This document shows, in pieces, positions 1 to 19,562 of a stretch of 21,777 nucleotides of DNA. This DNA is from a virus. Location: IMG/VR virus record IMGVR_UViG_3300000563_000521, one strand, 5' to 3'. Both the position numbers and the translations under genes were made by a program. Position 1 is the stretch's first letter; every line of letters starts with the position of its first letter. The notes beneath the pieces are model-generated. The model saw only the letters and a program-made list of their open reading frames with translations, made no database searches and was not told the origin of the DNA.

Positions 1-637
1 CTATGTTGTTAATAGGTAACAACTTTGTTATTTTGTTAATTAATGTTTGGTGTGTGTCAAGTTTATGTTGTATACTTGGTGCTAGCCAACCTTCTTCTCG
101 TTTTCGGTTGTTGAATCTTGGTTCTCGATACCATAACTTGTTACGTCTTCCTCTTCTATACATTGCTCGCTCTATTAGTTTTTCACTCACATTTTGTCTT
201 AGTTCTAATTCACCACTCACCAATTCTTGTGTCTCAGTTATCGCTGAGAAACCAATCACTTTACTTCCTGCATCTATGCCGAGAGTGATTGGTTGCGTGG
301 TTTCTCCTGTTGCAATAGTTAGTTGTATAGTGAATGGTTTTCTTTTGATAACTATTGCTTTTCCTTGTTTTAGTAATTTGTTTGCTTTTTGTTGTTTGCA
401 AGGCATCAAAGGTTGCCCCTTGATGTTTTGCACATACACAATATCAGATACTCTCAAGTTCTGATTCCCTGTATGTTGGGAATGGTTCTCTTCGGAGTTG
501 TTAGAAAAGGTTTTTAAGTCTTGCTCACTAAGAATTTCCTCTCTGTTTAAAGACAAGACCATAGAGCTACCGACTAGAGAAGTATCAGTAGGTATGTATG
601 TATTTCTCTTTCCTAACTTCTGCATTTTTGTTTCCAT
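1..637 (-). CDS. iscB: IscB RNA-guided endonuclease (OMEGA), 3' part beyond window edge
   Basis: Open minus frame from ATG 637 (AGGAGG upstream) to the window edge: METKMQKL...DIVYVQNIKGQPLMPCKQQKANKLLKQGKA...ITLGIDAGSKVIG...MYRRGRRNKLWYREPRFNNRKREEGWLAPSIQHKL. This contains the PLMP domain, RuvC-I (LGIDAG), the Arg-rich bridge helix and GWLxPS, all diagnostic of IscB. The PLMP domain begins near GTG 439. Confidence 0.93.
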   Translation of the reverse strand, partial: METKMQKLGKRNTYIPTDTSLVGSSMVLSLNREEILSEQDLKTFSNNSEENHSQHTGNQNLRVSDIVYVQNIKGQPLMPCKQQKANKLLKQGKAIVIKRKPFTIQLTIATGETTQPITLGIDAGSKVIGFSAITETQELVSGELELRQNVSEKLIERAMYRRGRRNKLWYREPRFNNRKREEGWLAPSIQHKLDTHQTLINKITKLLPINNI

Positions 638-711
638 CTTTGCCTCCTAATCAACCAATTGCTCTCAAACCTCACGGCTCAAGCCCCTTCCTTCAGGGAG
701 GGGTGATTGAC
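480..711 (-). ncRNA. IscB omegaRNA scaffold (HEARO-like)
   Basis: Minus strand starts GTCAATCACCCCTCCCTGAAGGAAGGGGCTTG (hairpin), followed by GGTTGATTAG, ...CTCTAGTC..CTCT..TTAAACAG..AGTG..AAACC..TAACAACTCCGAAGAGAA. This is the order of conserved blocks I recall for IscB omegaRNAs, directly upstream of the PLMP domain. The 3' boundary is approximate. Confidence 0.8.
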
Positions 712-1171
712 ATGTTCGTAATTGGTCTATGTTCATATAATTTCTAGTCCAGTATTGTTTATCTATTCCATAAAAACTGAACCAATTAACTTTGTCTTTA
801 TCGATTTCTTTTAACAATGTTTGTTTCATTAAATTTATTTGTGTATCAGATAAGTTAAAATGTTTTTGTATTTTTTCGTATAAAAAAAAGTATCTATCTT
901 GTTTGTCATCTTTTTTTGGATATTTAATAAAAGGTGTTTTGTTCAATTTTTTTCCATCAAAAAACAACAACGACCATGCAGCACTTAAATACACTTTAGG
1001 GGATGTGTAGAACACGAATTTGTTTAATACTCTTGCTTGCCGCACGGTTATGTTGTTCAAAGAAAGAAATCTTTGAATTACTACTGGTTGAATACAACTA
1101 TCGTCTAATTCAATAATCCATTTACTTGATGGATTAGTATACAAGTTTTTCAATATATCAAACACGTTCAT
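665..1171 (-). CDS. Putative clamp-loader small/A subunit (T4 gp62-like), C-terminus replaced by IS sequence
   Basis: ATGA-coupled to the gp44-like gene. Segments QPVVIQRFLS, TPFIKYPKK and EKIQKHFNLSD resemble gp62-family patterns. The last 15 aa (CQSPLPEGRGLSREV) are read from the IS end. Confidence 0.55.
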   Translation of the reverse strand: MNVFDILKNLYTNPSSKWIIELDDSCIQPVVIQRFLSLNNITVRQARVLNKFVFYTSPKVYLSAAWSLLFFDGKKLNKTPFIKYPKKDDKQDRYFFLYEKIQKHFNLSDTQINLMKQTLLKEIDKDKVNWFSFYGIDKQYWTRNYMNIDQLRTCQSPLPEGRGLSREV

Positions 1172-17387: not shown

Positions 17388-19562
17388 TTGGAACAAACAG
17401 ACACAACACTCGTAACGGATTTGACACAAATAATAAATCACGAAGAAGTAATATCTTTAATAAAAAAAGAGTTCTTTAGAATAGATACAAATTCTGCAAT
17501 AACTCTTGCTGAACTCATTATAAACAACGAAACAAAAATAAATGTCAAACAATTTAAACAAAAACACAAATCTTTTGTAAGAAAAAACCTTGGGAAATTT
17601 GAAAAACCAGAAGATGAAGAAAATGGCGATTATTATTTAAAAGAAGAGATTGTTGAATTTATAAAGAAAAAACTAATCATAATTGTTGAAAAAATCGGGT
17701 CCTCTATAAAAGATGTAGAAGACGATAGTGATAGGTGGTCTCTGAGTCAGGTTGATGGAATAGAAGCGTTTGAAACAACAAAATATACAACCTTTCAAGA
17801 TATAAGAGAAAAAATTAACAGAGAAGGAAAAAATATAGAATTTAGGTATTCTTTTAAAAAATCAGATTTAAAAACTTCTTTTTATGAAAATAAATCAACT
17901 TTACAAATGATAGATGTTCATATAAACAATAATGGTGAACATTTTGATTATCCTATAAAATATGTTTATGTTTGTCCTATGTGTGAAACAATTAGCAGTA
18001 TGATGGAATATAAAGTTGCTTCAACAAACAATAAACACAAATGTCGTCAAATGGTTACAAAAGATGATAAATTGAAAACGTGCAACACACCTTTAAATCC
18101 TGACACAAACAGAACAATAACCAAAGATGCATATATTTATGATATAACATTTAAAGATAAAGAAGGAAAGGAACAAAAGGCAGACGCAATGTCTTTTCAA
18201 TATTTGCCCAAAGGTCATTTAAAAGTTGTTCTGCAAAAAATACCACAAGCATATGGTAGACTGTTTGTTCACATAGTAGATTTCCAACCGATAGATAAAG
18301 AATCTATGAAACTACCAGAAAAAACAGCGAAAGAACATTATGTATTCACATTAATAAAACACATAGATAAATATATTAAAGAAAAAACCGGTTATGTTCA
18401 TTATGGTTATTTACCAGCAAAAATAAGTATGTTAGCACAAATGGGTTCAAGACACATTCCAGGATTTAAATACAATTTTCACATATCTTTGTCCGGAGAT
18501 ATGTCTAGTGGTAAATCACAGTTTGCTCGTTATTGGGGGATAACACTTTATGCAGAAGATGTGTTTCTTAGCAATGCAACAAGTGTAAGCATTCCAAAAT
18601 TAAGAGGAACGATGGAAAGCTTTCACTTATTTGGAAAAGAACACAGATATCAATACAGAGGTTTATTAGGAGAAAAGAAATTAATAGTAATAGATGAAAT
18701 AAAAGAGAACCCAGAACTAAAAAACAGTTTGAAACAATATTCACTTGAACCGGTTTATGATTATTCTAAACAAGGCAGTAATAATCAAACTTACAAAAGA
18801 ACTGCACAATTAGTAGTTACACAAAACATAGATACAAAACATTTAGATAAATATGCTAAAGACATAAAAACATTGTATCAATCAGACACATTAAAATTAA
18901 CTAACGATGATGGAATAGAACCAAAACCTGCTTGGGACCAACATACAGATTTAACATTACCATTATATACTTATAAAAACAGATACTTAAAATATTGTAT
19001 AAAAAAAATAAGAGAAGAATATGAAAGAAACACAAACAATTGGATTGATGGTTCGGAAATTGCTTTAAAACAAAGATTTTATTTTTATTATTATTTAGGT
19101 TCAAGTAAAACAAATAAAAAATTAACTCATACAATTAAACAAAACAACATAACACCTATAATATCTAACAATTTAGAACTAGTAAGAATAATGTGTGCAA
19201 AAGAATTGGTAGAATATTTAGAAAATACTCATGGTTATACTTATGGTGAAAACGATTTAGAATATTTTGATAAAATAGATGAGTTATTATCAAAATATGA
19301 TAAAAGAGGAGATGCCAGAACAAAAGAAATGAGTTATACTTTAATAAAAATTTTGAGAATAATAGATAAAAGAAAATATTGCAACGAAGAAGATTTGAGA
19401 ATATTACAATATATTTTAGAAAATGTTGATAACAAAGTAGAAGTAATAGATACAGACGAATTTAAAATAAACAACACTTATATAAAAAAAGACGATGTTG
19501 AGGAAACAAATATAGAAGAAGAAAATAAAGATTCTTGGGGTTATGATGATACTTTCAAATAA
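17388..19562 (+). CDS. mcm: Divergent MCM-family replicative helicase
   Basis: Zn finger (CPMC...C...C), Walker A ISLSGDMSSGKSQF, Walker B VIDEIK, SKQG hairpin, sensor VVTQN, Arg finger ALKQRF. TTG start preceded by GAGGTG. Confidence 0.85.
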   Translation: MEQTDTTLVTDLTQIINHEEVISLIKKEFFRIDTNSAITLAELIINNETKINVKQFKQKHKSFVRKNLGKFEKPEDEENGDYYLKEEIVEFIKKKLIIIVEKIGSSIKDVEDDSDRWSLSQVDGIEAFETTKYTTFQDIREKINREGKNIEFRYSFKKSDLKTSFYENKSTLQMIDVHINNNGEHFDYPIKYVYVCPMCETISSMMEYKVASTNNKHKCRQMVTKDDKLKTCNTPLNPDTNRTITKDAYIYDITFKDKEGKEQKADAMSFQYLPKGHLKVVLQKIPQAYGRLFVHIVDFQPIDKESMKLPEKTAKEHYVFTLIKHIDKYIKEKTGYVHYGYLPAKISMLAQMGSRHIPGFKYNFHISLSGDMSSGKSQFARYWGITLYAEDVFLSNATSVSIPKLRGTMESFHLFGKEHRYQYRGLLGEKKLIVIDEIKENPELKNSLKQYSLEPVYDYSKQGSNNQTYKRTAQLVVTQNIDTKHLDKYAKDIKTLYQSDTLKLTNDDGIEPKPAWDQHTDLTLPLYTYKNRYLKYCIKKIREEYERNTNNWIDGSEIALKQRFYFYYYLGSSKTNKKLTHTIKQNNITPIISNNLELVRIMCAKELVEYLENTHGYTYGENDLEYFDKIDELLSKYDKRGDARTKEMSYTLIKILRIIDKRKYCNEEDLRILQYILENVDNKVEVIDTDEFKINNTYIKKDDVEETNIEEENKDSWGYDDTFK

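Follow-up and report, generated by a model that had tools for sequence, protein, structure and literature searches.

The left end of the DNA analysed here, a window of 21,777 nucleotides from IMG/VR virus record IMGVR_UViG_3300000563_000521, raises the question of what interrupts a gene of a phage-type replication module, and whether the interrupting element could be aimed at the very gene in which it lies. Positions 1-735 had been read in the initial annotation as an IscB-omegaRNA element in an archaeal virus-like replisome operon, with its guide taken from the clamp-loader gene. We consider it likely that an intact IscB element of 1,498 bp is inserted in the gene at the T4 gp62 position, that its guide is acquired by read-through transcription, and that it would cut element-free copies of that gene and be reinstated there; the functional part of this reading draws on analogy. 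The window corresponds to bases 3503-25279 of contig C103 (44,224 bp, 28% GC). Because another 3.5 kb of this contig precede the window, the whole IscB element is readable, and the leftward extension that had been suggested recovered HNH, RuvC-II, and RuvC-III together with the other end of the insertion sequence (IS).

The core coding region of iscB in the window (PLMP, RuvC-I, and bridge helix) occupies positions 1-457 on the minus strand and was identified with the Pfam RRXRR and HNH profiles and by alignment to IscB structures. The minus-strand frame 2-637 matches RRXRR at 7e-54 and can be aligned with solved IscB at the PLMP motif and at GIDAG, in agreement with the minus-strand iscB carrying PLMP, RuvC-I, and bridge helix that had been noticed initially. 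The gene runs from the TTG at 457-455 to C103 2775 and encodes 394 aa. The complete iscB matches the entire RRXRR profile (positions 1-174 of 174; 4e-66) and HNH at 1.8e-10, and its product aligns to PDB 11hr, 7xht, and 7utn with E values of about 1e-42 to 1e-44. The HNH domain sits between RuvC-II and RuvC-III. The catalytic columns are the same as those of PDB 11hr, namely RuvC-I Asp, RuvC-II Glu, HNH His-His, and RuvC-III His/Asp. The gene as read is intact, free of frameshifts, and equipped with the complete domain set; neither the frameshifted nor the catalytically dead iscB that had been considered at the outset was found, and the IscB-omegaRNA copy is apparently a working one. With 394 aa, the protein is among the smaller IscB nucleases, a size that could be of use to developers of tools.

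The omegaRNA scaffold (HEARO, RF02033) is located at positions 480-711 on the minus strand, directly upstream of iscB and on the same strand. It was detected by Rfam cmscan with 111.8 bits (gathering score 83, E 1e-22) as a full-length match over model positions 1-211 of 211. The first base of the omegaRNA is position 711, where the scaffold had been proposed to start, and the RNA begins with GTCAAT. The end of the RNA match and the TTG start are separated by 22 nt, and the real 3' end of the omegaRNA is probably slightly further down, near 458. Seven omegaRNAs were aligned, two from the local copies and five from related elements on IMG/VR contigs, and compensatory double changes occur in 40 of the 66 predicted pairs. 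This is far beyond chance and argues that the omegaRNA is under structural selection. The first stem-loop of the omegaRNA, read from the sequence at 684-703 on the minus strand, is also the subterminal hairpin of the RE (the omegaRNA-proximal end), and its stem pairs 9-15/25-31 covary.

The iscB frame also remains open upstream of the TTG. The in-frame, stop-free extension through the omegaRNA occupies 458-637 on the minus strand, with ATGs at 637 and 625, and gives 454 aa when counted from 637. It contains no stop in the iscB frame, compared with four to five in each of the other two frames. Each of the nine elements in the clade of about 50% identity (the window copy, L004, L011-L015, L033, and L035) likewise has the iscB frame open over most of its omegaRNA; stops number zero in this frame and three to seven in each other frame, and the length differences among the nine are multiples of three. 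The extension starts at a conserved in-frame ATG (peptide MQK...). The second local copy does not have that ATG and opens at an upstream in-frame one (METK...), and the ATG is also absent from L024, a more distant archaeal relative. The omegaRNA-overlapping frame may represent a candidate translated extension of IscB; at least part of the literature on IscB treats the omegaRNA as a 5' UTR. The SD-like GGAGG at 645-650 on the minus strand, before the ATG at 637, was considered as evidence for a ribosome-binding site and rejected as such, because it forms one strand of a covarying long-range omegaRNA helix (columns 68-71 covary with 248-251) and is absent from the second copy.

The whole IscB element spans C103 2716-4213, equivalent to window positions -786 to 711. 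The 711 bp on the RE side, positions 1-711 on the minus strand, were delimited by the homology limits of the two copies on the contig and by the end architecture of relatives. The second IscB-omegaRNA copy is intact and lies 29 kb away on the plus strand at C103 32838-34322 (L004 7839-9323); it exhibits 73% nucleotide and 62% amino acid identity to the first copy, and its HEARO match scores 126.4 bits. Homology between both copies begins exactly at GTCAAT (window 711). At the far end, the homology passes the subterminal hairpin of the LE at C103 about 2733-2752, fades over 17 nt, and stops at C103 2716. The RE and LE hairpins have the loop CTGAAGG in common; 8 nt separate the former from its end of the element, and 17 nt the latter. 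The flanks of the element exhibit no target-site duplication, and terminal inverted repeats are absent too.

The LE is abutted by TTTAT in the first copy and by CTTAT in the second, which read as ATAA[A/G] on the iscB strand. The order of a hairpin, 14-18 nt, and then ATAA[A/G] is clear in both local copies and in L012, L013, L014, and L035, and is ambiguous in L011 and L016; ATAAA also follows the L033 element. On the plus strand of the contig, the element lies 3' of TTTAT, and the layout is the classical IS608 type: the target TTTAT is followed by the LE, whose hairpin stands behind a long spacer, and at the other side only a short spacer separates the RE hairpin from the end. Judged by its sequence, the element is a non-autonomous IscB element of the IS200/IS605 family (ISC-type).

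The gene that is interrupted occupies the T4 gp62 position and reads at 665-1171 on the minus strand. Residues 1-153 of this ORF are native, whereas the IS end supplies its stop and the 15 residues before it (665-711). The 13 homologues found in the protein database, which are 47-57% identical, share ...Y[GN][DK]R...KKGLDAW as a conserved C-terminal tail, which is absent here. A displaced native tail of 16 codons is found beyond the element at C103 2666-2715 on the minus strand, in the frame predicted by the boundary. When the flanks were joined in silico at ATAAA, the product read ...LRT YKE*PTTKPKQGLMGF*, compared with ...KD YGDRPKPKKGLDAFF in homologue P0004. The joining restores the conserved C-terminus of the gene, and the element is therefore placed 17 codons before the native stop, between T and AT of a Tyr codon on the gene strand.

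A far boundary seven bases further inward, with the flank ACAAGG and a 168-aa protein of homologue-like length, was also considered, and it was rejected since its frame does not resemble the conserved tail at all. We prefer the boundary at ATAAA because it restores the Tyr and the ...KPK.GL..F tail and because the motif lies at the same offset in relatives. The displaced tail contains one in-frame TGA at a conserved Arg position, a single-base change from CGA or AGA. Given this TGA and the identity of only 73% between the copies, the insertions are not very recent and may be fixed.

The interrupted ORF lies directly downstream of, and overlaps, a gp44-type clamp-loader ATPase gene at 1168-2070 on the minus strand. 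The ATPase matches phrog_168 'clamp loader' at 2.6e-57 as well as Pfam AAA and DNA_pol3_delta2, and its best phage matches are T4-like clamp loaders at less than 40% identity. Upstream in the same co-oriented operon is the clamp-position gene at 2290-2988 on the minus strand, which is named by gene order. The minus-strand order is thus clamp-position gene, gp44-type ATPase, gp62-position ORF, several small genes, and DNA polymerase B at the start of the contig; the order in T4 is genes 45, 44, 62 ... 43. A 38.8-kb ENA contig of a syntenic relative (L009) has the same gene order as this module and carries no element at the place of insertion.

The designation 'gp62-like' given in the initial annotation is supported by this gene position and only hinted at by the predicted fold. 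The AlphaFold model of the gp62-position protein (pLDDT 77) has 8unf_A, 8uk9_Q, and 3u5z_A as its top three PDB chains in Foldseek, with the best at only E 0.31 and TM 0.34. All three are the chain of about 187 residues in T4 clamp-loader complexes, the length of which matches gp62. The ORF has no Pfam or PHROG match, and no relatives of its protein were found in viral contigs. Elsewhere in the window, neither the clamp-position ORF nor a 724-aa ORF (17388-19562, plus strand) has a Pfam or PHROG match at E <= 1e-3, and the labels PCNA and MCM that had been considered for these ORFs are unsupported by those searches.

The flank that would encode the guide lies at 712-731 on the minus strand, as identified from its position relative to the scaffold. 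It reads as it had been quoted initially, and it belongs to the 3' part of the gp62-position gene. The putative guide consists of the last 16-20 nt before the scaffold, with GACCAATTACGAACAT as the 16-mer. Meers et al. (bioRxiv 10.1101/2023.03.14.532601) report that the RE of the transposon delimits the IscB omegaRNA. According to their work, the motif next to the LE, TTTAT or TTCAT in Geobacillus, serves TnpA as a target and is identical to the TAM; IscB elements tend to share the orientation of the gene upstream of them, and GstIscB cuts the donor joint left by excision. The motif next to the LE here matches the TAM type of Meers et al., and we infer ATAAA as the TAM, which on the iscB strand directly follows the target at its 3' side, where the initial annotation had expected it.

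Both local copies are co-oriented with an upstream gene and overlap its 3' end, and there is no intergenic gap in which transcription could stop. For the second copy, this gene is a 99-aa ORF, and the flank is ATAAG; its removal in silico leaves the stop codon of the upstream gene one base before the ATG of the next gene. In the mechanism that we propose, the transcript of the replication operon would read through the 3' end of the gene, and 16-20 nt of gene sequence would be fused 5' of the scaffold. IscB with this flank-guided omegaRNA would then cut element-free copies of the gene, in which the 16-mer target is followed by ATAAA. The occupied allele would be spared because the scaffold GTCAA stands at the place of the TAM. 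Repair of the break from an element-bearing genome copy would reinstate the element after excision by TnpA, which would be supplied in trans, and the same repair could copy the element into an element-free genome that replicates alongside. Read-through, cleavage, and homing are extrapolated in this scheme from published IscB work.

The guide is unique in the genome at up to one mismatch, and no TAM-bearing site occurs there at up to two mismatches. The exact 20-nt guide has no match in the metagenome and viral contig collections. The IS-free allele for which a search had been advised was not found at the nucleotide level in those collections or in the bin genome, and the homologues, at 47-57% protein identity, are too diverged to serve as targets of a 16-nt guide.

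The only Y1 transposase in the bin is encoded on the host-like contig C57, in a TnpA-TnpB element beside a Kae1/TsaD-like host gene. This element, at C57 3809-5364 (L007 344-1899, minus strand), resembles an autonomous IS605, with a TnpA of 139 aa (Y1_Tnp 5.6e-35) and a TnpB of 379 aa. At its ends, the hairpin motif of the IscB element was not found, and no similarity to the ends of the IscB element is visible.

Compared with known systems, the element corresponds in every tested feature to a standard IscB OMEGA element, and we regard it from these comparisons as a clean example of a known system and not as a new one. It resembles the GstIscB element (ISGst, Geobacillus stearothermophilus) in being a non-autonomous member of the IS605 family, with the omegaRNA upstream of iscB and bounded by the RE, a guide from the RE flank, and co-orientation with the upstream gene. 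Both elements exhibit an AT-rich pentanucleotide that abuts the LE, which is TTCAT/TTTAT in the GstIscB element, where it is target and TAM, and TTTAT/CTTAT here. The present element differs in its carrier, an accessory virus-like archaeal contig, in its insertion inside a coding region, and in its shorter protein (394 aa from TTG). [quoted passage not shown] The sequence similarity is only distant, however, and the C-terminal TAM-reading part is unaligned. The TAM is expected to differ as well, being putatively ATAAA here and NWRRNA in OgeuIscB (cited in PMC12660989).

IscB and HEARO RNA on viral or prophage contigs have a precedent in the virus-associated systems (MG35 family) of Goltsman et al. 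2022 (PMC9755519), who report that more than 16% of HEARO-encoding fragments are likely viral. That work is not known to have analysed insertion sites or guides in virus genes, whereas here the site within a replisome gene is fixed to a single base. This resolved insertion and the setting in an archaeal mobile element are the modest addition that the locus makes; the understanding of how IscB works is unchanged. With both ends, the putative TAM, the guide, and a reconstructable empty site in hand, the 'cut the empty site' model becomes testable in a virus-like setting.

The carrier of the element was characterised from the bin to which C103 belongs, which comprises 0.91 Mb in 115 contigs and is estimated to be 87% complete. 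The SSU rRNA of the bin fits the archaeal model (1349 bits) better than the bacterial one (1068 bits), and genome sizes in the same order are 0.3-1.5 Mb. These scores and sizes point to a small-genome, DPANN-like archaeon. Two contigs of the bin, C22 and C49, exhibit 45-52% GC and tetranucleotide correlations with the rest of the bin of -0.2 and 0.64, and both are likely binning contaminants. The correlation of C103 with the mean of the other large contigs is 0.97, compared with 0.985-0.998 for typical contigs. The gp62-position gene is present in two of 196 genomes of the host order and IscB in three of 196, both counts including the bin, and C103 is therefore regarded as accessory. IscB was found in none of the 21 genomes of the host family.

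Contig C103 has two arms with divergent transcription. Its recognised genes encode helicases, glycosyltransferases, methyltransferases, and an intein-bearing ATPase, and most other ORFs tested have no family match. The ATPase is a 634-aa P-loop protein with two mini-inteins (L004 5233-7137, C103 about 30232-32136, plus strand; Pfam Intein_splicing 2e-28 in three stretches). One intein splits the Walker A motif and the other follows the Walker B region, and no family was matched by the extein. Searches of 20 larger ORFs of C103 against PHROGs and Pfam detected no capsid, portal, or terminase family; a single weak terminase-family match on the contig falls within the intein part of this ATPase. 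There are no shared k-mers between C103 and the other contigs of the bin that would suggest CRISPR spacers. The initial annotation had spoken of an archaeal virus. Binning with an archaeal genome and the phage-type replication module agree with that description, but no capsid or terminase hallmark was detected; as far as this evidence goes, C103 is a virus-like mobile element of an archaeon.

In a broader reading, an archaeal virus would carry and spread both elements, and these would act as RNA-guided gene drives when genomes co-infect a cell, read-through aiming each of them at the element-free allele of the gene that it interrupts. We hold this reading only tentatively and consider it rather doubtful. 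If it were true, the elements would represent an RNA-guided counterpart of the T4-like seg and mob homing endonucleases, in a host lineage that is otherwise almost without IscB. The seg and mob genes are free-standing homing endonuclease genes that lie among the replication and nucleotide-metabolism genes of T4-like phages; their products recognise DNA by protein contacts, and they are not transposons. The likeness is one of functional analogy only, in that a selfish nuclease gene lies among phage replication genes and would be expected to cut element-free co-infecting relatives. It differs from seg and mob in that recognition here would depend on a flank-derived RNA guide and a TAM.

A further reading differs from the preferred one only in which target matters, and holds that the element is kept mainly as an inter-virus weapon or gene drive, which is where the initial annotation had put its emphasis. 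The ribonucleoprotein produced during infection would cut the gp62-position gene of close, element-free relatives in the same cell and thereby convert them by non-restorative homing or exclude them, in the manner of the seg and mob endonucleases. The distribution described above fits this reading, since IscB is rare in the host order, the C103 replication module is sporadic, and both IscB copies of the bin are on the accessory 44-kb contig, with none on host-like contigs. Replication in T4 is recombination-rich, and the T4-type module would imply the same for C103. In addition, 'transposon non-restorative homing' into co-infecting phages or plasmids is listed as theoretically possible in a 2026 review (PMC13565253). 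However, the searches turned up no element-free relative whose genome has a matching target, the closest homologues of the gene being those at 47-57% in protein, and the guide falls in a variable part of the gp62-position gene. The carrier would also have to be a virus, and no capsid, portal, or terminase family was detected on C103 apart from the one weak match in the intein region. We consider this reading unlikely.

Another reading sees the element as a stranded passenger, fixed at its site without a compatible transposase or target, which has not yet decayed or whose removal would not restore the gene. Such a passenger would account for the lack of an empty site in the collections and the genome, for the nonsense codon in the displaced gene tail, and for the lack of a TnpA with matching ends in the bin. 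Nevertheless, at 73% nucleotide and 62% amino acid identity, neither copy has lost its complete ORF, its catalytic residues, or its full-length omegaRNA, in which the changes are compensatory, and the intactness of copies that have diverged this far argues for purifying selection and not for decay; we regard this reading as improbable. An artefact of assembly or binning, by which the IS would have been joined to the replication gene only in the data, might be suspected in a MAG of 115 contigs that includes the off-composition C22 and C49 and in which repeats can cause chimeric joins, but it is very improbable, since an independent Logan assembly of run SRR490129 has the same gene/IS junction (99.96% identity over 4,657 nt), both flanks fit into one conserved ORF, and the copies, at 73%, are too diverged to collapse in assembly.

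IscB relatives at about 50% identity were identified on IMG/VR contigs and in bacterial MAGs of three phyla. Two IMG/VR contigs, L011 and L016 (UViG_3300036761_003159 and 3300032143_000041), carry the same IscB element with identical flanks. Judged by eye, the flanking frames in both contigs resemble the halves of one Cys-rich ORF, and elements of this clade may often insert into coding regions.
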